DNA of 56,107 nt, counting the filler, from Porpidia crustulata (Eukaryota): NCBI GenBank assembly GCA_964255105.1. It is 6 parts of 6 records of this genome, joined end to end, with 100 filler letters (N's around TTAATTAATTAA, not from the genome) between each part and the next. Parts side by side here need not be neighbours in the genome. Positions count along the whole stretch, not along the records: positions 9,376 to 18,647 come from CAXUWE010000965.1; 5 more parts are not named here. One strand, written 5' to 3'. The notes beneath the pieces were generated by a model. That model was given only the letters and a program-made list of their open reading frames with translations, searched no databases and was not told where the DNA came from. Shown here piece by piece: positions 6,178-46,846 of this stretch. The translations under genes were made by a program, and so were the position numbers. Position 1 is the stretch's first letter, and every line of letters starts with the position of its first letter.

Positions 6178-7748
6178 TATTGAGGACTGCCAATGATTAC
6201 ACAGTCTGTAGATGACTTGCATCTATCCACTCACACACCATACGAAGACGACACTCAAATTTGACCTTTGCCTTTCAGGGTGTAAGATACTCGCACCTTT
6301 CGATCTTTCCGTCTCAAAGAACCACGAAGAGAGTTGAGAATCAGGGTGCTTGGGGAGCTAGGCACCAGCCTAGTCATGAGTTGAAGCATCACATTCTGCT
6401 CATGTAGGACTCTTAAGCATCCAGGTCCGCATGCATGAGTCTCATTCACTATGGTTGTAAGTCTACTCCGAATATAAAGACAGACAATAGTTGCGAGGCA
6501 TTGACTCCACACCAAACAGGGAGTTGCTGTCCATGACGACACAACTAATCCACATATATCCAATGTGCTGTTATGACATCGTTGGCTCTGTAAAGCTTTC
6601 TGCGTTGTGCTTCCCACATCTTGCATCCATAGCGAGTAGGGTTAGAGGCTGAGCACGGAAGAGCGAGAGGAAGCACAGGTTGAGCATGGAAAGATACACA
6701 GACAAGCGAGAAGCAAAGAAATCCATATCGCAAAACTCGATCTTCATCAATAAAAGTCAGATTTGAAGATTATTTCACAAAGACTTCTCGACGATTCTAC
6801 GTAGTCTAACAGCGTGTCGTTCGACCTAACTTCGTGCGCTCATCGTCATTTAACTTGATGACGTTCAGATGATGTGTTCTATAGATTCAGTAGTAAATTT
6901 GATGAGAACCGAGTTTTGCGATATGGACTGTTCTGCCCCCCAAGAGACAGGGAGCATCAGATAAGGTACTTGAGGGGCGCTAGCGCAGGAGTGAAGTAGA
7001 GAGGCCTTAGTCAGGTAGAGAGGGCGTTTTCATTATTCGGGGGTTTCTTCAACTCCAGACAGCAGATGGCTTTGTGTGGATTCGATCCACAAATGCGGTG
7101 GATGAAACACACGGCATATGGAGAGTCTATTTTCCTCCATGGCCAGTTGGGCGCTTGGAAGTGAAGAGGGTCTAGTAGGGTCTAGTGGAGTCTGGCTGGA
7201 GGCTAGCGAGTCTAGTGCCGCTGAAAAAAGGTTAACCGTCCATTTCTAAACCCATTAAGACGTAGATCGCTAGCCATACATGGTTAAGAGAGATAAGAGA
7301 CCCCACCTTTTTCTCGACGATTGGCCAGTCACAATGAAAGAATCGTGAAGCCTGGCACGCTAAGCTAGCGGTAACAGTGGTCGGTCTTGCAACCATCAGG
7401 GAATTCCAGTTAATTACTTGCTTACTTGCCCCTCCCCCGGCCATTCCCTTCCACTTCATATCTTCTACACAACTACTGCCTCTTCCTCATCATTAACTCT
7501 TCATCCCACCCCGTTTCCATCTAATTCCGTACCAAACTTCAGACCTTTTCGTTCACTCTCTTGGATCGCAATTCAATCAATTCAATCAATTCAACCATCA
7601 AAACAAACCACACTATTCCTACTGTATCATCGACCCAGATTTCCCTTTGTTGTTGTTGCTCGATTCCGCAAGCGACCGACGTCTGCCGAACCAGCTTTCT
7701 TGGAAAGCACAGACCTAATCCTTTCAAACCCGCATCGTCCACACGAAT

Positions 7749-8445
7749 ATGTCAGCGTTCTACTACGGTCCTCAGCACCATCAGCCTTCTTCTGCGTCAT
7801 CGCACTCATCGTCGTCGTCACATAATCACCATGGCGGCCGATCGCGCAGAGCACCTCGCTTATCAGCTTCTCAAAACTCGCATCGCCAATTCCGAGGGGT
7901 CCGTAGCATGAAAGAGCTGACGGAGAGTCCGCCAGCCTCTGCGTTTCGGATTAGCTTCGAGGCCGGAAGGTCCTTTGATCTGGATGATGATCTCGAGTTC
8001 TGTCCTGGCCTGTTGACTGAAGACGATGTAAGTGCTCTGCGCATCCTTCGACCGCTTAGTATCGCCGTTATCATACTATTTGCCGATCGTACAGCACGCT
8101 GACTTCACTCGTTCATAGTTGCAATCTATCCGTTCGTCATCTTCCGACGGTTCTTTATCCAGTGGATCACCTCAATCGTCCCCACTCCAGCAACAGATCC
8201 AGCCATCCCAGCAAGTCATGCCAAGCTTCTCTCTATCGTCCGCTTCGAATAACTCCTACAATCCTGCCACCGGTTTCCAGTCGAATAATAACCATCATCA
8301 AATGAAGATCCATCAGCCTTCTGCGTTACGTAGCCGGAACGCGATCCCCATCGTCAACCCAAGTACGGGAATGCGAGTTCCTAGCCCTCCTTCCTCCATT
8401 TCGCCAGCCCTGATGCAGCAGCAAACGTATGCGCGGCGCTGGTAG
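7749..8445 (+). CDS. Ser/His/Gln-rich hypothetical protein (~200 aa, probably disordered)
   Basis: Two exons, 7749-8027 and 8119-8445, with a canonical intron (GTAAGT...GCTGAC...TAG). Non-low-complexity blocks RQFRGVRSMKEL, FEAGRSFDLDDDLEFCPGLLTEDD and RNAIPIVNPSTG; pyrimidine-rich 5' leader. Confidence 0.8.
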
Positions 8446-9275: not shown

Positions 9276-9375
9276 NNNNNNNNNNNNNNNNNNNNNNNNN
9301 NNNNNNNNNNNNNNNNNNNTTAATTAATTAANNNNNNNNNNNNNNNNNNNNNNNNNNNNNNNNNNNNNNNNNNNN
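9276..9375. other. Artificial contig spacer (N44-TTAATTAATTAA-N44)
   Basis: 100-bp spacer with stops in all six frames, identical at five positions. Confidence 0.98.
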
Positions 9376-10267
9376 AATTTTCTCCGAGGGATTGGAGCGG
9401 CTTTGAGGGTGAAGTTTTGGAGGGTATTTTGAGTTTCGTTGAGGCTTCTGTCTTCGCCTTAAATTTGCCTTATTTTCACTTGCTGCCTGGTATTAAATAC
9501 ACTGGAGTTTCCGCCCCGTTCCAAACTTTCTGCTGCTCAACTTGCTCGATTCTGCCTTGGCGATTTTGTTACATTTCGACATGTGCAGTTGACATGTTCT
9601 ACTGGTCTTGCTACTAGCACCTGGTGTGGCGATGAAGCCGACAACTGTGCCTCGCGGCGTGTTGACACCTTGGATTTCCCTGGCAGTGATGGTTACTGTG
9701 ACGCTTGCCTCAGCCTCGTGACGAGAGGTTCTGAAACTTGAAGGAACTGTGAAACTGGCGATGGATACTGATAACGCTACCTAATGATACAGACGCCAGA
9801 AGGATCATAAAACCTCGCCGCTGATGCATAAGATTGAGAAAGCCAGGGACTACCAGATGCACATGCAATGCAAAAACCATTGCGGCAAGAGTAAAATACA
9901 GAAAACATGCTGTGCTAGATGTGGTGCTAGAATTTTGGGGTATTGCGAAGGAAATCAGCTAAGATCAAATACGATATACCGCTAGGGCTTTGAGAAAAGA
10001 AACTGGATCGATAATGCTGTCGATAGTTTTTAAAGGCGGTAACTGACAGCTATATTAGCAATCCGATTCAACATAACCGGAAGCAGTACGATCTACCTGT
10101 TCGGCCCGTTTTCTTTCCTTCGCCAAATGAAAGCATCGCTCATACAAGAGCACAAGTCGATAGTAGCCATTAAAATCGATGCTTGCAGATTCGAACATTG
10201 ATGCCAAAGTTGAGAAATCCAGAGGATGATGGGCAACGCGTAAGAATCAATACATCGAAATGGCGGT

Positions 10268-10435
10268 TTAGCGACGAGTCGTGATGCGGCCATAGGACGA
10301 ATATGTGTCCTTTTTTTTGTGACAATATATGCAGTATTCGTGAAGGCGTACGGTCATTGGCCCCTTCCCGCAGTTTCCACAATACCATCGGGTATAATCT
10401 GTGTAAACAACAACCGTCGGCGTTGGCGTCGGCAT
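10268..10435 (-). CDS. 55-aa Cys-motif (zinc-ribbon-like) microprotein, array member A
   Basis: ATG 10435 to TAA 10268: MPTPTPTVVVYTDYTRWYCGNCGKGPMTVRLHEYCIYCHKKKDTYSSYGRITTRR*. Upstream TATAAG (~10629-10624) and a C/T-rich leader; shares the motif of the two neighbouring ORFs. Confidence 0.7.
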   Translation of the reverse strand: MPTPTPTVVVYTDYTRWYCGNCGKGPMTVRLHEYCIYCHKKKDTYSSYGRITTRR

Positions 10436-12129
10436 TTCGATGTGTATTGCTCTGATTGTGGATTTGGCGAGACGACGAGGATTGCAAAAATGGACGAGGA
10501 CAGTAGCCTATGAGTGGACGCTTGGTATCGAACTTCTTTGTGAGTGAGGACTGGGATAGTGGATCTTGGATAAGTGAGATGTGATAATTTGAATAAGATG
10601 ATTAGTGAGACATGAACTCCTTCTTATATCTTTGAGTCTCTCTTGACCGCACTCTGACCCTTCAGTAGTTCCCTATTACTTCTTGCTTACCGGAGCTTAT
10701 CGTGGGCATTGCCCCATCGAAGCAACGAATTATCTGTCATATTGCTTTGGCCAAGGAGAGGAAGAGCCATTTAGACTGTTTCCGAGTTTTACTGTTAGCT
10801 TGATGGGAAATTGGGAAGATGGAAATCGTGAAACCCGAGTGGCAGCTCCGCTTTGCTGGCGCAGTGATCCTTCTCAGGTCAGCAAATGCTTGCCTTGAAG
10901 AGTAGGTAGACATGAAGAAGCCTGAGGTATCTGTATGCATTCGTATTATTTGGACGTCCTGAGGGCGTTCTAGTGAAGCTTAGTGCCCATCTACATATTA
11001 TATCGCTTCATAAAACAATTTTTGTAAGTCTGTCGGAGCCTGCCGGTGCTAGATAGAGCGAGGCTTCCGAGGCTGTGTTCATCAGACTTTGGCTCGATAC
11101 AACTTGATATTGTGACTGTAAAGTCAGGTGGCAATAATAGATTGACCGAAAGGATCGCAGCTTCATCAGACGTGGTACAATGTGGAAGAATTAGAGCACA
11201 AGATTTAATCATGCATGCCTTATGCATGCAAAACATACCTGGCTGCGTCGTTACCAAATTCAGTGCGTTAGCCATGTGTCTTTCGGCCGCTTATCGAAGA
11301 TCTTCTTCCAGCTCATTACTTAATTGGATGCAGATTCCCGGTGAATGGTGTATCGCCGCACGGAAGATTCTCTGGCTCGCTGCAAATGCCACATAGCCTT
11401 CCTGTGCGTGCTTATGTGTAGGCAGCTTCGAGCTAATTCCATACTTTGCTCACTGTATATATCCCCTTCAACCGAAGTATTAAGTAAGGCAACTGACTAT
11501 TGTTAGAATGACGCATAAAGACATGGGAGGGCACCCAACGCAGGTTTGACAGCCGCGGCGGGAGTGTTTAAACAGGATCCCTCAACCAAAAATTGACATC
11601 GTGCTGTTACATGAATGTAAGCTGAACTTAGTTAAATTGCATCAACCGTCATTTTAATGAGGTAGCTGTATCTCATGGTTGCCGCACAATTAAGCATGCA
11701 AAGATTGTATTGAACCGAGGAGAAGCGTAGAGCCTGTACTATCGCTACCAGCGAAGTGGAATGCAGAGATCGCCCGAGCATCCGTCTAATCCTTCAAACC
11801 GTTTCGCGTGTGCCAATAATATACAAAGATAGGAGTAGCGAGCCACATCTATGCCTCAAAACTAACGCCAACTTAGGCAACAGTTAACGAAAGTAGGAGT
11901 TGGGTTTTGCATAGGAAACATCGAACGATGGTAGGAAGAACATAAAGAAAGCAAAGACGTCCATCCAAGGCTCAAAAGTAGATACCAGTAGCAACCCAAT
12001 CATGGATAGATGAAGGCACACCATCGAATTGTCCGCGAACACATATAATCCACGACTCTGGATGGACTCCAGTACGCATTGTGGTCGTCCGCAACAAGCT
12101 CTGTCGGGTGATTTCCCAACAGCGATCTT

Positions 12130-12575
12130 CTATCCTTCGATCCGACAAGAGGTGCATCTCTCATGATTGCAATGGCACTTCGGCTCAATTTTAATGGACT
12201 TCGGGCCGTCGTGGCAATGACCTGGCAAATTAGCTTCAATGTCTTACAGTAGGAGGGGAAAGACGTACAGCAGTACCAGACTGCAGATTTTCCGCTAACG
12301 AAACACCTCCCTGGAGATTGACTGACCGCTCGATGTTCGAAGAAATACTCATCATCAGTATCGCTCTCATTTTTGCAGACATTGACGGAATCGAAGGAAT
12401 GATCAGCGTCATGGGTATATGAGGTATTTCCATCGAGTGTTGAAGTAGACTGAAGTGGCTCTCGAGTATTGACCGCTATTGAAATAGTAGCAGTCAAATG
12501 GTCGATAGCAAATATGGACCGAGATACGGATGCCTGCCAGGTCTTATTCCCATCAGGACAGTTTTTGTCTGGCAT
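12130..12575 (-). CDS. ~132-aa protein with C-terminal Cys-rich WYCC..GP module, array member B
   Basis: Exon 12575-12269, 47-nt intron 12268-12222 (GTACGT...GCTAAT...CAG), exon 12221-12130. Splicing gives ...AVWYCCHCHDGPKSIKIEPKCHCNHERCTSCRIEG*. The start codon is tentative. Confidence 0.7.
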
Positions 12576-14329
12576 GTTGAGGGGAAGGGGCAAGTTGAAT
12601 ATACAGAATCCTCTTAAAGTTAGGACAAAAGTGAACGCAGATATACTTGATATTTCACGTCAAGATTTGAAGACCAAGGTGGAGAAGAAAATAAGCTGTA
12701 TAGACATCCGAAATTCATCAAGAGGGGGCATCAACAATACCTTATGTATTTCAGCCAAGAGAAACCTCGGAGTTTTCACTCAAAACGGATGGCTCCTGAA
12801 TCAATCCCATACTCGCTATGAGGTAGTCCCACAAGGTAAGATTGACTTACAACTGTACGGGAAATCACTACTCAGCTGTGAAATCCAGCGCGGCAACGTG
12901 GGATGAGGTGACAGCCACCAAATGAGGTTTATGAAACCACTGGTAGTTCTCTGCGCTCTTCTGACGGTGATCTTTTGCCGAAGTCAGGAATGTAGGCGAA
13001 GCACAACAATTGTGACAGAGCTACTGCCGTCCCGCATCCTCATGCTGAAAGCTCAAGCACTTTTTGATGGCACAGTTGCCAGAATGAAGGGACTTGCAAT
13101 CCTGACCGTGAGGATCGATTCTGTAGTGGGCTCAGCTTGACAGTCTCTACATCATGACTGCAGTGAGGCAACCCATTCTGCACAGAAGTAGGCCTCAAAT
13201 ATTATCACTGCACTCAGGCACGGTCAGCCAGGATGGGTCTCTGGCCTTCGTCTGCGCAGGCTCGCGTGGAATGCTCACGTGGAAATCTCCAAAGCCGTTG
13301 TCCCGGTAAACGCCTCAGAGAGCTCGGAGAAATTTTAAACCAACAGCAAACGAATCCGGGGTTGTGACTACCTACTACAACAGAACCTTATGCAACGATC
13401 GACACCGGAGCTTGAGGTATTGTCACGGAAAGGGTAGGTACAAGCTGCATTAGTGTGTTGCTGTTTCAATTAGCACTCGTATCATCACAGCAGAGGGGGT
13501 GACATGAGTCCACAGTGGAAACCAGTAATTTTGCAGATGTGACTGACGATATCAGCGGCAGGATCCTGTGCGACATTGGTGACTTTCACTCTTGCAGAGC
13601 AAATAAGTGGTAATATCTTATTACGCCCGCACATAGCCTCTGCAGGACGCCTTTTGTTAATCTAAGAGTAGCATTTACAGATTTATTGAGCGGATTAAAT
13701 TCAATGTTTTTTCTAGTCCTGGATCTGCGTATCGTAGTCCCAGTGACAAGGTCGACATCTTGTATGAAACTGAGGACAAAGAATGATTGGCGCGTCTACT
13801 TACCCTTTCAAGACAAGAAGTGATTCTAAATGCATGAAGGCAATCGCATCTGCAGAGTGACGATCGAAAACGTTCGAAAGAGCGTGCATGTGTAGGATTG
13901 AAGAAACGAGGCAACTAGGCTACGAGAACTTACTGATGAGAAATATCCAGCAACATCCAGGTCGTGGAGGTGTCCTCCATGTGAATCATGTTTCATACTA
14001 GACAGCTGAGATTATCAAGGTTAGCTTGATTCAACATAAGTTTATGTAAGTCGTACTTTGATGACTGCATAATTGGGGTAGATAAGATGCGAGCATTTCT
14101 TCCTAGGGTATGGCATTACGAAAACTGCCTCGATGATACGAAACATTGAAACCAGGGTAGCTTGATATGTAATCGAAATATATGGGTGCAATCCCAACTA
14201 CTGAGGCTTGATCTAAGAATAAAAGGAAGAAACCTGGATTTTGCTAACGTCGGCGCGACTAATAATCTCATGACCTTATCTGCTTGTAGTTACTCCTATG
14301 ACCACCCAGGAAATTGACGATCTTGGACT

Positions 14330-14788
14330 TCAAAGTAAAATTTCGCGACACTGTGAGCACTTCTGAAACCCGCAACTTATGCAGCTATTGTATATTGAGG
14401 ATATATGTGGACCTGTGGGGCAATTTTGACAGCAATACCAGTAACGTATGAGGGTCGGTCCAGGATCTGAGCGGCGAGGGCTGGTTCTGTTGATGCTTTC
14501 TGGCAAGGTGTAATGTCCGTCATCATAATTTGTACGCCGCAGGGAATCCCTACCAAATGGTTGAGTGCTGGCATTCGAGGGGTGATGGGTTTCGGTTGCC
14601 GGGCTTCGCTGTGGATGTTGTGCCAGCTGAGAATGGGTGGTTGGTGAACGCTGAGCGACCGTCGAAAGACTCTGTTGAGCAGCTCGATGCACAGGGCTCA
14701 CATATTGAAGCTCAGTCAACTGGCTTGGCCGTCTACCCGATGGATCTGGTGGATAGAAAAAATACACTGGTGAGCTATTGTAAGTCAT
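14330..14788 (-). CDS. ~152-aa Ser/Pro/Gln-rich protein with C-terminal Cys-rich WYCC..GP module, array member C
   Basis: First ATG 14788; the ORF ends RYWYCCQNCPTGPHISSIYNSCISCGFQKCSQCREILL*. Confidence 0.7.
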   Translation of the reverse strand: MTYNSSPVYFFYPPDPSGRRPSQLTELQYVSPVHRAAQQSLSTVAQRSPTTHSQLAQHPQRSPATETHHPSNASTQPFGRDSLRRTNYDDGHYTLPESINRTSPRRSDPGPTLIRYWYCCQNCPTGPHISSIYNSCISCGFQKCSQCREILL

Positions 14789-16589
14789 ACCAGAGCGTAG
14801 CCGGCCGTCTGCTGGTTGACGACTCTGTTCCACATCAGCAGATATCACAAGAGATGTTTAGGACTCCCTACAGAAGACATTGACTGATCTGATGTGGAAT
14901 CACAGCAAAACCGAGTTGAAGTATATAAGAGTGCAGTAATAGTAAGGGATTGATCAAGGATATTAGAAAATACTTGAAAAATAAGTATATATTGAATGGA
15001 AAGATTAGACAATACTATATATGAATCTATGGTAGTAATAGCTACCGTGTGCGGATAAAACTTCAGGGCTTTGACAATAGAATACGGAAATCCCCTCTGC
15101 CAATTCCTATTCCTGACCAGGAGGGAGGAGTCACGCCAATAACGTATGCCTACAAAGCTACGCCCTCATGAGACGGAAATCGTGGATGATGCGTGTGATA
15201 CAAAAATCGGGGACTAGTTAAGCTACACCGGTGGAAAATCATACAGAAAGTCGTTGGTGCGGTGTCGTGCCGATACATTCAAGTGGCTAGTCCATCCCCA
15301 ACAGTCAGCAAGACTTGCTCTGAGGCAGACGCTTGAACCCAAGTATCTTCAATCGTCATTTCAGGTGGCTTAGATCAAGCACTTGGCCGGGTGAAATCCA
15401 ATTTGGCTGGAATCCTTGACGAGGGCGATAAAGAGATCCAGCAGTATTATACGTTCGTCCGTATAAGCCTGTAGGGGGCTTAGGGAGAAGGCAAAGGATA
15501 TAACCGCTCCCTTGCCCATATCAGGAGCTCTTGGAACCTGGTTCACGTTTCCACAGCTCATGGGAATTTGACCCCCGATACTCGGCGTCCTTGCGCTTAA
15601 TAGTAATGTGACCGCATACTTCAATTCATTTAGAACTTGGTTCAAGAACCTTCGCCTTGGCGTCGGTGTCATCGCATGATCTCAGCTTTCACGTAAAGGG
15701 GAAGTCGTCCTTGATCAAGAGCATGAGGGATGCTTTTCGCCAAGAAGTTACCATCTAGCGAAGGTGCTGCGGCATAATTGAGCGGGAGCGCCTCGTTCGG
15801 CACACGTCGTAGAAATTGAGGCATTGTTTCGGCAGCCTGAGAAAATGCCGACTCTTACCGGCGTTTCCTGAGGTTCGTACAGCCTTCTCTTTGCTCCCTT
15901 GTGTGATCAACTAGGCTTGGTCCGTCGAGAAGGCGAAGTCAAAGTATGACTGAGAGTCCGGACTATGGTGAGGCACCAAGGCTCTGTTGGTTGTAGTGTT
16001 CGCGCATCTACCTGTATGTAATTGCTACACCTTCCGAGCAGGTGCCTTATATTTGCGCAAGAGGCAGTGTAGAAACGGTTGCGCCCTGCCCAGAGGGCAG
16101 GAGATTAGCGGTTTATCATCATGTGCAATCCTTAGGCAGAAAGGTAATCCTTGACATGATCAAGCATGGAGTGACACGGAGCGACGCGAGCCAACGTGTA
16201 TAATGGATCATACAGAGACATTGACTGCAGAAGGTGCCGATCAAGTAAGGTAAAATCAGGTAGTCAAGGTATCCACGAAGGTAATATGGAAGCCGAGTAA
16301 GGTACCTGACACGTATGTGGATGACTCAGCAGAAATTGGCGGAAATAGGGAATAAGCCGCGAATGCTCGGACTTGGAGGAAATGTCAATTATCTAATACT
16401 TACCTACAGTCTATGGATTACCCAGTCTGGAACACCTAAGTATTTACGAATCTCACAAGCATTTGGGTTCGAACAAGCTAGATTCCACCCTGTCAGTCAC
16501 ATTCAGTCTCTGCCTGCTCGGTCTATCTACTATGAGCATCTACCCTGCCCGACCAGTCTTGAGCACTTGCTCTATAGATAGAGGTTCCT

Positions 16590-18373
16590 ATGGCGCCGAC
16601 GACTATTGACCAGAAAGCTGTCAACCTTTGGACTGCAAGAATCATACCGGTTGTTCTCGTCGGAATAGTGGGATATGTGACTTGGGTGGTGGTCGTGCTT
16701 GTATGCGGTCAGGAACCTTGTGAACGTCACCACGATGTGAAATTGACAGTTGACAGTTGATTATCTCCTGAAGCCACTGGTTACTGTCCGGAGTCCACGT
16801 CCTCACTCAGCAATCGGTATTCTCGTTGGATATTCCATCTTATTATTGCTCATTGCGACTACCTACTTCCGACTATTTTACGTTGTCGCGACAAACCCAG
16901 GCTACGTCCCGAGAGGTCCTCAATGGCATGCTGTGCAGAATGATCGGAAGAAGCAGGGAAGGCACACCAAGAAGAATAAATCGAGAAAGGACACGAATAG
17001 CTCCGGGACCAATAATCTCGAAGAGAAGGTGCATAGTCCCACTCGGCAAGGCGCTACTGAAGTCCGTTTGGATTCCCATCATAGTCGGGCTTATATCAAT
17101 CAACCCAGTGGATCTAGACCTTTAAGTGGAGGGGATCCGGCGCCTGATTTACGAGATTTCTACTCTAGAGATGTCTTCGCTTGCGAAGGCGATGGTCGGC
17201 CTATATGGTGTTCTACTTGTTGGAATTGGAAGCCAGATCGTGCTCATCACTGCCGTGAGTCTGGACGCTGCGTCAAAAAGATGGATCATTTCTGCCCTTG
17301 GTAAGTACTCTCCATTATATCGTTTGATTTGGAAAAGCATCGACAATGTAGTATTACACTACGGGATATTTGGAAAAATGATCTAACAGCTATAACTTGC
17401 ATAGGGTCGGAGGAGTGGTATCTGAAACTAGTTTCAAGTTCTTTTTGCTCTTCAACGCATGGACGGCAGTTTATTGTATATTTATCCTTATATTCATGGC
17501 AGTATTCGTAAATGAACAGGTAAGTCCCGATTGCCTAACATCTCATTCGCGCCCTACATGCATGAATGGCGCCCGCACACCATCCTGCAGTCCACATCTC
17601 TGAGGACAACCCTGACCCTTGAACATACCACAAACAACCTGGCCCTGTAGCACAGCAGAGAACCTTGTCTCAACATCAAGTTAAAAGCATCAGGCTGACA
17701 TTTTTGACATGTAGATCGGTCACTCCAACGTCCATTTTATCGCAGTCGTAGCTCTGTGAGTCCGACTCTTTCGTATGATTACCAACAACAACTAATTAAT
17801 TTTCCCAGCGCTGCCCTTTTCGGGCTTTTCACCATGGGCATGACCCTCTCCTCCCTCCAGTTTGCACTTCTCAACACCACTACTATCGAGAATCTGTCCC
17901 GCAAAACCAAAGTCTGGACCCTAGCGATCTACATGTCCCGCCCACCCTCACCACAGTCTCTCTTCCCACGATTCCAAATCATTACTTACCCATTAGCCCC
18001 AACCCTCACAAACACTGATGATGCAAATGTTGCGCCACCATCACTTCCATCGCCCCCTCCAGTCGGCCCAGCAAGGACATTTGCAATCCTGCACACGAAG
18101 CCCGGCCAGAATCCCTGGGATCTCGGACCCTGGCGAAACTTCAAATCCGTCATGGGCGAACGATGGTACGATTGGTTCCTGCCCATCAAACACAGCCCGT
18201 GCTCTCGCCACTCCGGAATGGAGAGCCAATTCGAGGTTGGACCGGTCGTTCAACAAATGAGAGAGGATGCGGGGATAGCGCTGCCTCACGGTGAAGATGA
18301 AAAGCCGTCCCACAGAAAAAGGAGGAGGAGGAAGAGCACGAGCCGGGGTACTAGGAGGGAGGGAGAGATGTAG
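16590..18373 (+). CDS. PFA5: DHHC-family palmitoyltransferase Pfa5
   Basis: [32 protein letters not shown]...; Cys-rich domain [51 protein letters not shown] and NPWDLG motifs in the C-terminal exon. Confidence 0.9.
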
Positions 18374-18647
18374 ACGGAGGGGGACAGGTGGAATGAAAGC
18401 CTACGTTTTGACGCAGGGGAATGTCCGAATTGCATCTTGTGGGTAGCGAATTCATGGAAGCATTACGGTAGAGATTCAACTGGGATTACATAAACACATA
18501 TAGACGAACCACAAACTTAAGGCTTAGGCGTTCTTTTTTTTACACGCCGGAATCACATATTGTGTCATTGATCAATCCAAAACGTGCACAATCATCCATA
18601 TCAGACCTTTGGCGCGTATTCTCTGTCAAATGAATCTTGGTTTTTGC

Positions 18648-18747
18648 NNNNNNNNNNNNNNNNNNNNNNNNNNNNNNNNNNNNNNNNNNNNTTAATTAAT
18701 TAANNNNNNNNNNNNNNNNNNNNNNNNNNNNNNNNNNNNNNNNNNNN
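18648..18747. other. Artificial contig spacer
   Basis: N44-TTAATTAATTAA-N44. Confidence 0.98.
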
Positions 18748-28015: not shown

Positions 28016-28115
28016 NNNNNNNNNNNNNNNNNNNNNNNNNNNNNNNNNNNNNNNNNNNNTTAATTAATTAANNNNNNNNNNNNNNNNNNNNNNNNNNNNN
28101 NNNNNNNNNNNNNNN
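28016..28115. other. Artificial contig spacer
   Basis: N44-TTAATTAATTAA-N44. Confidence 0.98.
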
Positions 28116-37381: not shown

Positions 37382-37481
37382 NNNNNNNNNNNNNNNNNNN
37401 NNNNNNNNNNNNNNNNNNNNNNNNNTTAATTAATTAANNNNNNNNNNNNNNNNNNNNNNNNNNNNNNNNNNNNNNNNNNNN
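37382..37481. other. Artificial contig spacer
   Basis: N44-TTAATTAATTAA-N44. Confidence 0.98.
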
Positions 37482-43620: not shown

Positions 43621-46449
43621 ATGATGGTTTCGAAGACAGCGAAGATGCCCTTCAATGGGACCCATACAGCTGGAATATTTGCCGACATGACTGTGGATGG
43701 CCCAGAGATTGGCACGTTGGTTGTTGTAATGGATCGAGCGAAGAACCTACCGAATCGAAAGACCATGGGGAAGCAGGACCCATACTGTGCGGCAAGACTC
43801 GGCAAAGAAGCAAAGAAGACCGAAACGGACAAAAGAGGCGGACAAACCCCACGATGGTAGGCCTTCTAGTACATCAAATTCTAGATACCGCTAACGAGAC
43901 CAAGGGACCAAGAAATGCGCTTCACTGTTCACGACTCGGCTGACTACTACCAACTGAAAGTCTCTGTATTCAACGATGACAAGAAGACCGAGCTGATTGG
44001 AGAAACCTGGGTGAATCTTGAGCATGTTGTGGTACCTGGTGGAGGGAAAAATGATTTGTGGCACAATCTGAATTGCAAAGGAAGATATGCTGGCGAAATA
44101 AGGATCGAACTTACCTACTACGATACTCGCCCAAAGGAAGAAAAGGCCGAGGAAAGAAGGCAGGATGGAAGGCAAGATGCCTCCACCCAGGGGTCTCAGG
44201 ATCAAGGGAGAGAGGCCATAGGTGGACCACGACAGCTGAAGCAAGTTAAAAGAAGGCCCTTGCCAGCAGATCCGACCGAGGGTTTATCATCTCGTCCTGC
44301 AATGCCCGATCATTCTCAATCTGCACCACTACCATATACTGCCTTGCCAAATAATCAGCAATCATACGATTCTCAGCCAACTTATGTAGATCCACGACCC
44401 GACCATAGATTCGAATCTCAATCACAATTCGACAACCAAAACCAATACCAAACACCGCCTCAATTTCGAGGATCGCCGTCAGGCTACGATGGCTTTGATC
44501 AAGACCATTTTAGTGATGGCATTACTAATGTATCTCGGATGCCTGGTGATCCCCATTCAGATCAGCTGGATACCTACGATACCCACTCGCCAAGCTCGTA
44601 TCGACAAGAACGCGCCTCGGTGCAACACGGCATGTATCAAAGAGAACAAGACTTTGAACGGTCACCATCTTATGGTCAAAGATCTCACATTGCTGAACCT
44701 ACCCCAAATCGTGATCACCAGGCTTCAGATCTTGCTCAGTACTCAGGATACAATGACAGGAACGATGGGCCTCCTGCTCAGCCATTGCCTAATGGGAATG
44801 GTATTCCTTTTTCGAATTCAATGCCAGATGTTCGACCTCAACCGATATTACAACACAGTGATTCGTTGCAGCTTAGGTCGTCGCTGCCGGGGAGTAATAA
44901 TCATGATGATCTACCTGCGCAAAACTACCTTCCGCCCCAAGGTAGCCATAGATGGCAAAATCAAGCAGAAAGTCTTAACGATGGGCCTGGGCCTCCACCT
45001 CCCCCTGTCCACAGACATAGCGGGGCAAGGTCTGAGATCCAACCTACCGGGCAAGGTCAGGTGGAAACATATCCCCCGATCGCACAGCCAGCACCCTTGA
45101 GAATGAGAAACGAACGAAATAGTGTATCGAACAGTCCACTGTTTCAAGTGCAGAGTAACACATCGTACACTGACCACCTCTTATCTAATTCTCCGTCAAA
45201 TTCCAATCTCTCGCACTCCGGGGCTTCCGTTACATCTCGCTCATCTTACAGTCAGCATGACAGACGGCAGCCACAAAGCAATATATCGTCATCTCCGATC
45301 CGAGAAAATGCACAATCGATGCCTCCCAGTCTTGTAGCCGGTTACGCGCCTAGTATAGTCGATGACGAGATCGAAAGGGACATACGTGAGAGACGTATGA
45401 GCGCGAGACCGGTATATGCGAATGATTCTGTCCCGCAATATCGCCAGCTGCCCAATGGCTACGCTCCCTCTGGTACACATCTACCAATGAATCCTGCCCT
45501 GGGACCGATCAGAACTATAGAGAATGCTCACGATCGGAGAGTGCATCGATCTTCTGCCCCTGTACCTATGTCGAAGGCATCCATCAGTGATCTTCGAACT
45601 CCCATAAGAAAGTCTGTCAGTCCACAGCCAGGATCAGGGCCAGAAAGTAATCAGCGTTCTGCCATTCCCTTCTCGCCAGATTCTTACGACGCGTACAATC
45701 CCTCTGTCAGCGCTAGGTCTAGTATCAATTCCGCTGGACCCAAATACAATACTCCAGAGCAAGCCAAAGATGCGTTCAAGCAGCACGAGATAGATTCTAG
45801 GCTAGCGGAGGGTCCGATAATCGGTAGTGATGGACGAGAGATTGACCCATCCGATCATCTTCCAACGGAGACATGGGCCCCCGAACCTGAAGTAAAGACG
45901 CCCAGGAAAGGCCCACAGATCACGATGAGGTTCAGGCAGAGTCCGCTGGGTGCTCAGCCTATGCCAGCATCGTCTCGGCGACCGCTTCAAGATGCCACAG
46001 GTCGTCCTCATTCAGTATCCACGCCTATCTTCGCCCACTCGGCCGACCCAAACATCGCACCCACCGGCCGAGCCCGCCTACAAAAGAAGACGCGTTCCTC
46101 CATGGAGCAAGGAACACCGCCTCCGAATTCAAGTCCATCAGCCCCAAGAATGAATAATAGTCCTAGCCCTTTGGCACCAAGACTCGATACCAACTCATAT
46201 CATTCCACCCCAAGAGCTTCTCCATCTGCTTACCCGATACGGGAGCCCGAGAATTACAGCTACGGAAGCAGTCCTACGTATGCCAGGAGTTCGCCAAGTG
46301 GAATCCCTCCACCAATTCCAGGCAAGATCCCCATACCTGCGGGACAGGAGGAATGGGGAAGAGATGCGCTAAGCGAGGAGATGAGAAGGATCGATATTGG
46401 CGTTGGTGGGGGACAGTCAAGGGTAAGGCGAAGTAGATTTGGAGCATGA
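43621..46449 (+). CDS. INN1: Cytokinesis C2-domain ingression protein Inn1/Fic1
   Basis: N-terminal C2 domain GTLVVVMDRAKNLPNRKTMGKQDPYCAARLG...DKRGGQTPRW|DQEMRF (intron 43857-43904); long Pro/Ser-rich tail with PxxP motifs (PPPPPVHR, PPPIPGKIP). Confidence 0.88.
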
Positions 46450-46746: not shown

Positions 46747-46846
46747 NNNNNNNNNNNNNNNNNNNNNNNNNNNNNNNNNNNNNNNNNNNNTTAATTAATT
46801 AANNNNNNNNNNNNNNNNNNNNNNNNNNNNNNNNNNNNNNNNNNNN
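46747..46846. other. Artificial contig spacer
   Basis: N44-TTAATTAATTAA-N44. Confidence 0.98.

Follow-up and report, generated by a model that had tools for sequence, protein, structure and literature searches.

Three tandem genes of Porpidia crustulata encode small proteins of a conserved, unnamed family with a zinc-ribbon-like module and a probable extra metal site

This report concerns a cluster of three small genes, A, B and C, in a stretch of Porpidia crustulata DNA (assembly GCA_964255105.1; 56,107 nucleotides (nt), hereafter the window) that consists of six pieces of ∼9.27 kb, linked by N-runs with TTAATTAATTAA mid-run. The entire three-gene locus lies in piece 2 (9376-18647). An earlier reading of this DNA, referred to below as the original prediction, had placed three minus-strand open reading frames (ORFs) here with starts ∼2.1-2.2 kb apart, and all three are present, A at 10268..10435, B with its start at 12575 and C at 14330..14788, with measured distances between starts of 2140 and 2213 nt. 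The features of the three genes are as follows (aa, amino acids).

10268..10435, minus strand: gene A, an ORF for a 55-aa microprotein with one four-Cys module
12269..12575, minus strand: gene B exon 1, 102 codons and one base of a further codon, that of the second Cys of W-Y-C-C
12222..12268, minus strand: gene B intron, 47 nt, phase 1, with GTACGT donor, CTAAT branch site and CAG acceptor
12130..12221, minus strand: gene B exon 2, the remainder of a seven-Cys(+His) module and the stop codon
14330..14788, minus strand: gene C, an ORF for 152 aa, perhaps 167, with a seven-Cys module at the C-terminus
14789..14880, minus strand: possible 5' extension of gene C, with ATG at 14880 (M-S-S), an intron and in-frame codons 14824..14789

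The three genes were scored with a module hidden Markov model (HMM) built from 219 family modules that include neither A nor C of the window. Gene A, at 47.4 bits, carries the module W-Y-C-G-x-C-x2-G-P-x8-C-x2-C-x4-D, the type that two-module relatives have as their N-terminal one, gene C reaches 43.2 bits, and exon 2 of gene B, with the motif x-C-x-D-G-P-K-x7-C-x-C-x-H-x2-C-x2-C, reaches 33.7 bits. The C-terminal module strings quoted in the original prediction are all found, that of B only after removal of its intron, which yields a protein of 132 aa. The C-x2-GP-x8-C core is kept exactly in A, B and C, the basic residue four positions past the second Cys pair is K, R and K, respectively, and the lengths given for the segments ahead of the modules (16, 99 and 116 aa) are correct. 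Signal peptides had been said to be lacking, and there is indeed no signal-like or membrane-like hydrophobic stretch in any of the three proteins (maximum Kyte-Doolittle(19) value of 1.23). Over its six frames, the window has two matches to a strict form of the module motif, in A and in C, that of B being split by the intron; 200 shuffles have none, and no further module scores above 9 bits with the HMM elsewhere in the window.

Genes A, B and C share no DNA-level repeat, and the duplication is therefore old; the proposal of old, diverged paralogues holds, as each of the three is nearer to proteins of other fungi than to the other two. Gene A is 32-37% identical to B or C, and its best BLAST matches are the N-terminal modules of the proteins P0013, P0037 and P0010, at 54-58% identity. 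Searches by tblastn with exon 2 of B find the metagenome loci L001, L004, L006, L008 and L009 at 48-52% identity, and homologues of C are 38-50% identical to it. Directly past the second CxxC of A the K-K-K codons form a frameshift-prone A8 homopolymer (window 10305-10320, minus strand). A third CxxC for A, reached by frameshifting at the A8 run or by splicing, was sought and rejected, there being none in the other frames.

Metagenome contigs were scanned with the C subfamily, giving 11 loci, and in nine of these six-frame translations searched with the module HMM reveal the order C, B, A on one strand; the remaining two end before the expected position of B. Spacings between genes in the syntenic loci are about 2.1 and 1.6-1.9 kb. 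Because the nine loci fall into two groups, one of six near-identical loci (C 50% identical to that of the window) and one of three (C ∼36%), independent support comes from approximately two further lineages and not from nine. Orthologues of A are intact ORFs of 52-56 codons at the syntenic position in all nine loci, with the same start, module and end, and have in common a start of the type M-P/S-P-P and a basic tail. Synonymous sites are near saturation between the window and the closer group (dS, synonymous divergence, about 1.5-1.8). The ratio of nonsynonymous to synonymous divergence (dN/dS) ranges over 0.22-0.34 for A and 0.22-0.38 for C, with values against L001 of 0.22 for A and 0.22 for C, and, within the distant group, of 0.31-0.34 for A, 0.33-0.38 for C and 0.25-0.32 for the last exon of B. 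Both comparisons with related loci that the original prediction had called for come out in its favor: the array and its DHHC-type neighbor are kept, and dN/dS is 0.2-0.4 wherever the changes suffice to count. On the DNA evidence, A, B and C are shown to be real, conserved genes under purifying selection.

The match of gene B to L004 by tblastn spans 12231-12575, and after splicing, residues 47-132 of the product can be aligned with both the linker and the C-terminal module of the two-module proteins P0030 and P0007. The intron sits at the same codon and in the same phase in L001-type loci (GTACGT...CTGAC...CAG), and in the L006-type group B has no intron at the corresponding position. The string N-C-P-D-G at residues 5-9 of B is no more than a hint of a decayed N-terminal module. 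In the distant group, B and its surroundings (∼12050-12785 of the locus) show 71-78% DNA identity between L006 and L008/L009, with flanks at ∼90-97%, and dS for B is 0.66-0.72 between L006 and L008/L009 as opposed to 0.07-0.12 for A and C in the L006-L008 pair. The B region may be a locally older or an exchanged haplotype.

These observations bear directly on whether the ORFs might be non-functional, either chance ORFs or decaying pseudogenes. Gene A, at only 55 aa and with its A8 run, would suit such a reading, as would the fact that C ends ∼10 residues before its relatives and that B diverges fast in one lineage, yet the shuffles produce no motif match, and the orthologous ORFs are intact with the same starts and stops, low dN/dS and a conserved intron and upstream blocks. 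Because of this conservation non-functional ORFs are largely excluded, and we regard them as extremely improbable.

The product of gene C has at its N-terminus the conserved linear motif SPVYxFYPPDPSGRRPSxLTxLQY, followed by a disordered middle and a terminal module, and by its alignments (A3, A7) it belongs to a third subfamily. An AlphaFold model of the full-length protein has a predicted local distance difference test score (pLDDT) above 90 for residues ∼108-152 and below 70 for the rest. Window C stops (14330-14335, minus strand) ∼10 residues before its relatives, in which a conserved tail, ...V-x-x-R-D-R, follows the module. At the other end, conserved in-frame residues upstream of the ATG at 14788 (DGRLRSG, matching [DN]GR..[SY]GMT in relatives) and a conserved MSSV start, P0001 and P0002 beginning M-S-S-V like the window ATG at 14880, suggest that C has a short additional 5' exon. 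The putative intron would run from 14871 to 14825 (14871..14825; 47 nt, GTAGGG...CTGAT...CAG), leaving a first exon of 9 nt and giving a protein of 167 aa; unspliced, the ATG at 14880 opens only an 11-codon upstream ORF.

In order to place A, B and C among known proteins a profile of the module was searched against 1.84 billion representatives, with clustering at 50% identity, giving 243 protein clusters at E≤1e-3 and 16 at E≤1e-10. Names were available for eight of 20 clusters looked up, all of them hypothetical proteins from Pezizomycotina, in the genera Penicillium, Thermoascus, Thermomyces, Paecilomyces, Colletotrichum, Triangularia, Apiosordaria and Trichodelitschia (classes Eurotiomycetes, Sordariomycetes and Dothideomycetes). 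Word-index homologue searches are nearly blind to the family, returning three and four proteins and none for A. That no characterized family could be named agrees with our searches of a local Pfam copy of 24,736 models, in which neither A, B, C nor 48 relatives had a match. At E≤1, the aligned members matched by any one Pfam family number at most 6 of 140, as judged from the best 25 of the 51 families in that survey, and no publication on the module family was found, judging by literature listings and abstract openings. The original prediction had also held that such genes would be largely hidden from gene callers. Public gene models are in fact broken or read through at an intron within the module in P0033, P0082, P0083, P0142 and P0145, so that this part stands in some measure; the eight clusters with NCBI/UniProt entries show that the concealment is not complete.

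Among 154 stored proteins, matched by regular expression, 69 contain two modules, 81 one and four none. The recurrent relative is a protein of ∼140-190 aa with a four-Cys module just past the start, W-Y-C-G-H-C-x2-G-P-M...C-x2-C-x-R-x-x-D-x-Y-A-T-Y-E, and a seven-Cys module at the very end, W-Y-C-C-x-C-x-D-G-P-K...C-x2-C-x-H-x2-C-x2-C, joined by a Ser/Pro/Thr-rich linker with a median length of ∼80 residues and a composition of 14% Ser, 10% Pro and 1.5% Cys. Genes A and B correspond to the N- and C-terminal modules of this common architecture. Simple fission of a two-module gene was considered as the origin of A and B and rejected as unlikely because the genes stand in the wrong order for it, B, with the C-terminal type of module, being upstream of A; tandem duplication followed by differential loss of modules fits better, although this is conjecture. 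A, B and C each combine the traits by which the family is defined, an HMM match, a terminal module, a short protein and no signal peptide, and judged by these traits they belong to a large unnamed family of small Cys-module proteins that is widespread in Pezizomycotina.

The module of C was modeled with AlphaFold from a 140-row alignment, with a mean pLDDT of 88.6 and 32 of 46 residues at or above 90, and in it a short strand ahead of the Trp is paired with another past the last Cys. The model confidently predicts a small zinc-ribbon-like fold. A comparison with 48,161 chains by VIA-align, of which 26 rows were listed, has as its best match eS27 ribosomal zinc ribbons (Z 3.2, root-mean-square deviation (rmsd) 2.9 Å, 44 residues aligned). 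These are likewise C4 ribbons closed by flanking strands, but their identity to the module over the aligned residues is 11-16%, with no sequence relation and a different context, and Z is far below the level for claiming common ancestry. Ten of the 26 listed rows are RanBP2/NZF fingers by title, at Z 2.0-2.6, and the rmsd is 1.9-2.1 Å over whole targets of 30-31 residues (Npl4 NZF, 1.9 Å over 31 of 31 residues). Z values this low point to a common small zinc-ribbon arrangement and not to membership.

The RanBP2/NZF fingers (PF00641; Npl4, TAB2, Nup153, RBM5, FUS) are the class to which the original prediction had assigned the architecture, and there is some likeness: they are ribbons of ∼30 residues, folded as two beta-hairpin knuckles around one Zn(Cys)4, that start with W-x-C-x2-C and end with C-x2-C, they are often terminal or lie within disordered regions, and their first knuckle, W-x-C-x(2,4)-C, is present in A, in B (across the intron) and in C. 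Two family members have been auto-named 'RanBP2-type domain-containing protein' by UniProt, and one Atlas neighbor cluster, with a score of 0.84, is named 'RanBP2-type domain-containing'. A reading of the proteins as true NZF/RanBP2 fingers that bind ubiquitin, Ran-GDP or single-stranded RNA, and hence serve as ubiquitin- or RNA-binding adaptors, would draw on this first knuckle, on these names and on the VIA-align rows that cover whole target domains, and the xPxY-like and R-R-P-S motifs of C would then presumably link it to a ubiquitin ligase or kinase. The family spacer, however, is 12 residues long with an invariant G-P and not the 10-residue x3-N-x6 by which the class is defined, and the proposed likeness stands only weakly, at the level of the fold. 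The PROSITE pattern PS01358 matches only one of 152 family proteins and none of A, B and C; PF00641 gives no row at E≤10 for A, the B ORF or C and no row at E≤0.01 for 48 members, and it is not among the best 25 of the 51 families matched by at least two of 140 members at E≤1. Residues known to bind ligands in RanBP2/NZF fingers seem to be missing from the family modules, and the T-F dipeptide by which NZF fingers bind ubiquitin is absent. In modules of the B and C type the first Cys is followed by an added Cys (or His), and there is a third CxxC and in most cases a His besides; the three extra Cys of B and C are foreign to RanBP2 fingers. With Z values so low as well, we consider membership in this class unlikely.

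Other known systems resemble the module less. Searches of PDB sequences with C and with alignments A2, A4 and A5 gave nothing better than E=0.011, a marginal profile match (19.4 bits) to the IBR domain of RNF31/HOIP (PDB 2ct7). The pattern C-x2-C ... C-x2-C-x4-C-x2-C does equal the first six ligands of the C6HC motif, but the family is without the final H-x4-C, its proteins end 3-5 residues past the last Cys, there is no flanking RING1 or RING2, and no RING or IBR Pfam match reaches the cutoff. Rows for the TRIM63 B-box and the RNF4 RING (E 0.15-0.9) were set aside since they reflect only the common string C-x-H-x2-C-x2-C. An Atlas neighbor (score 0.78 / 0.77), a 225-aa cluster from Ascomycota, carries PF26652 Zn_ribbon_double, a 'probable double zinc ribbon domain', and is a lead only; neighbors with higher scores (0.84-0.90) have no Pfam 38.1 family in common.

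The first-knuckle Cys residues are separated by two positions in 188 of 216 modules, and the spacer between knuckles is 12 residues in 181 and 13 in 28. A Cys or His follows the first Cys in 169 of the 216 modules, 158 of which have a third CxxC; a Gly at this position is found in 32, only two of which have it. Of the 165 modules that have a third CxxC, 120 carry a His no more than three residues past the second pair. It is this covariation of the extra Cys with the third CxxC that points to a second metal site in modules of the B and C type, to which the extra Cys of WYCC probably belongs. The ligand pattern would accordingly be read as one Zn(Cys)4 site in A and, in B, a further site made from a Cys, a His and two more Cys. 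A complex of the L006 orthologue of A with the last-exon ORF of L006 B and three Zn was predicted with alignments not used and scored 0.02, relative to a mark of 0.34, which is evidence neither way.

The number and arrangement of Cys residues also bear on a role in metal buffering or storage, in the manner of metallothioneins, or in redox sensing instead of binding. Metallothioneins have a very high content of Cys in Cys-x-Cys and Cys-Cys clusters, few or no aromatic residues and no fixed fold without metal. The Cys/His positions of the family are conserved and there are several tandem copies, as in some metallothionein loci, which would be expected for such a role, but A, B and C have just 4-7 Cys per 36-aa module in proteins of 55-152 aa, the module Trp, Tyr and Gly-Pro are conserved in a confidently defined fold, and the long disordered linkers are Cys-poor. 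We therefore hold buffering or redox sensing to be very unlikely.

A further alternative comes from the surroundings of the array, for which the relevant features are listed below (the conserved blocks are given without strand).

16590..18400 (approximate), plus strand: DHHC-type palmitoyltransferase gene (Pfa5-like), divergent from gene C
10792..10984: non-coding conserved block, ∼360-550 nt upstream of A; blastn to L004, 70% over 206 nt
12720-13058: non-coding conserved block 1 upstream of B; blastn to L004, 66% over 343 nt
13256-13563: non-coding conserved block 2 upstream of B; blastn to L004, 68% over 317 nt
15765..15985: non-coding conserved block between the divergent C and DHHC genes; 227 nt aligned to L004 by blastn at 68%
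L001 4617-5078 and L004 4699-5160, also in L003, L005, L007 and L011: fourth family gene

The DHHC gene matches the Pfam DHHC model at E=2.5e-11 on 16747-17301, and a DHHC neighbor in the same orientation is found in L001, L004, L006, L008 and L009. The array might be coupled to this palmitoyltransferase, with the microproteins as its substrates (S-acylated at Cys-Cys), as its regulators or as zinc donors to the DHHC domain. Such a coupling would account for a divergent arrangement of C and the DHHC gene that is kept in both other lineages despite saturated synonymous sites, for a conserved non-coding block within the shared intergenic region, and for the fourth, two-module family gene that L001-type loci carry beyond the DHHC gene. 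Synteny among relatives may, however, be plain inheritance, with only about three lineages to go on, no fourth gene is seen in L006-type loci, and the way in which the second Cys varies together with the third CxxC speaks for a structural metal ligand and against a free acylation site; the coupling is thus decidedly unlikely in our estimation. A combined version, in which an undescribed two-metal variant of the zinc ribbon occurs together with an array that is the partner set (substrates, regulators or zinc donors) of the Pfa5-like DHHC enzyme, is improbable to much the same extent as metal buffering; if it were true, an otherwise orphan fungal S-acyltransferase would gain its first dedicated clients.

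What we favor instead, and consider moderately probable, is that three ancient paralogues form a conserved array here and that their module tethers or recruits a partner as a metal-stabilized recognition module. The module of ∼36-40 residues would place two CxxC-type knuckles 12 residues apart in a zinc-ribbon-like arrangement, closed by short beta-pairing between the stretch ahead of the Trp and that past the last Cys. The four-Cys module of A would hold one metal ion, and the modules of B and C would have a second site, formed by the extra Cys together with the third CxxC and, in most cases, a His. Located at protein termini on disordered Ser/Pro/Thr-rich segments, with a short linear motif added by the tail of C, the modules would tether or recruit a protein or nucleic acid partner as RanBP2/NZF fingers do. 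It is this terminal placement on disordered segments that makes a small recognition module the most likely mechanism. The intracellular location and binding role are what we infer from the proteins themselves, the binding role being modeled by analogy on RanBP2/NZF fingers.

Several points weigh against this interpretation. Between L006 and L008/L009, gene B changes faster than the DNA on either side of it, and for C the L008-L009 pair gives a dN/dS of 1.17, a value resting on 1.5 synonymous and 5.5 nonsynonymous changes. The Foldseek check called for in the original prediction, run on the AlphaFold model against the PDB, gives no match at E≤0.001, and VIA-align gives none at Z≥5, with values under 8 perhaps indicating just a common arrangement. 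We infer both the identity of the metal, zinc, and the number of sites from the ligand pattern. In window C no His follows the second pair, which would leave three Cys as the only ligands of its second site. Neither the locus nor the family names a partner, ligand or function.

The surroundings of the genes offer several further observations. Another conserved non-coding block lies at 13817-13867, and all of the blocks have 66-79% identity with L004 and are as conserved as the coding modules despite the saturation of synonymous sites. They may be promoters, untranslated regions (UTRs), or unrecognized small exons or RNAs; the one at 10792..10984 is probably a promoter or UTR since its tblastn matches are in several frames and on both strands. 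In the closer lineage the fourth family gene is found beyond the DHHC gene, ∼5 kb upstream of C; its product is a 153-aa two-module protein without G-P (W-N-C-C-x-C ... W-V-C-C-x-C), and no such gene is seen in the window piece or in the L006-type loci. A WD40-repeat gene is located downstream of A in both lineages and, in the distant one, a nonribosomal peptide synthetase-like ORF (condensation and PP-binding; L008 18280-20457, minus strand) ∼4 kb downstream of the A orthologue. When the ORFs of the remaining five pieces were compared with 10 kb on either side of the syntenic loci, nothing similar was found at E≤1e-8, so that the pieces may be non-adjacent in the genome. Spliceosomal introns and genes such as those for a CLC channel, a carnitine acyltransferase, a syntaxin and a proteasomal ATPase mark the window as fungal, and the remaining features are as follows.

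9276-9375, 18648-18747, 28016-28115, 37382-37481 and 46747-46846: linker N-runs
7719-8099, plus strand, piece 1: DUF4452 gene fragment
43885-46446, plus strand, piece 5: 854-aa open frame without a Pfam match

Taken at the level of sequence, what emerges is a real, conserved and unnamed zinc-ribbon family with a probable extra metal site, which does not amount to a new type of system. The family is sizeable, with at least 243 clusters (50% identity) among the filamentous ascomycetes; it has neither a name nor a model in the Pfam copy searched, and its genes are short, split by introns and prone to mis-annotation. Should the second site be real it would represent a new way to add a metal center to a RanBP2-like ribbon; should it not be, this would be one more uncharacterized zinc-ribbon family.

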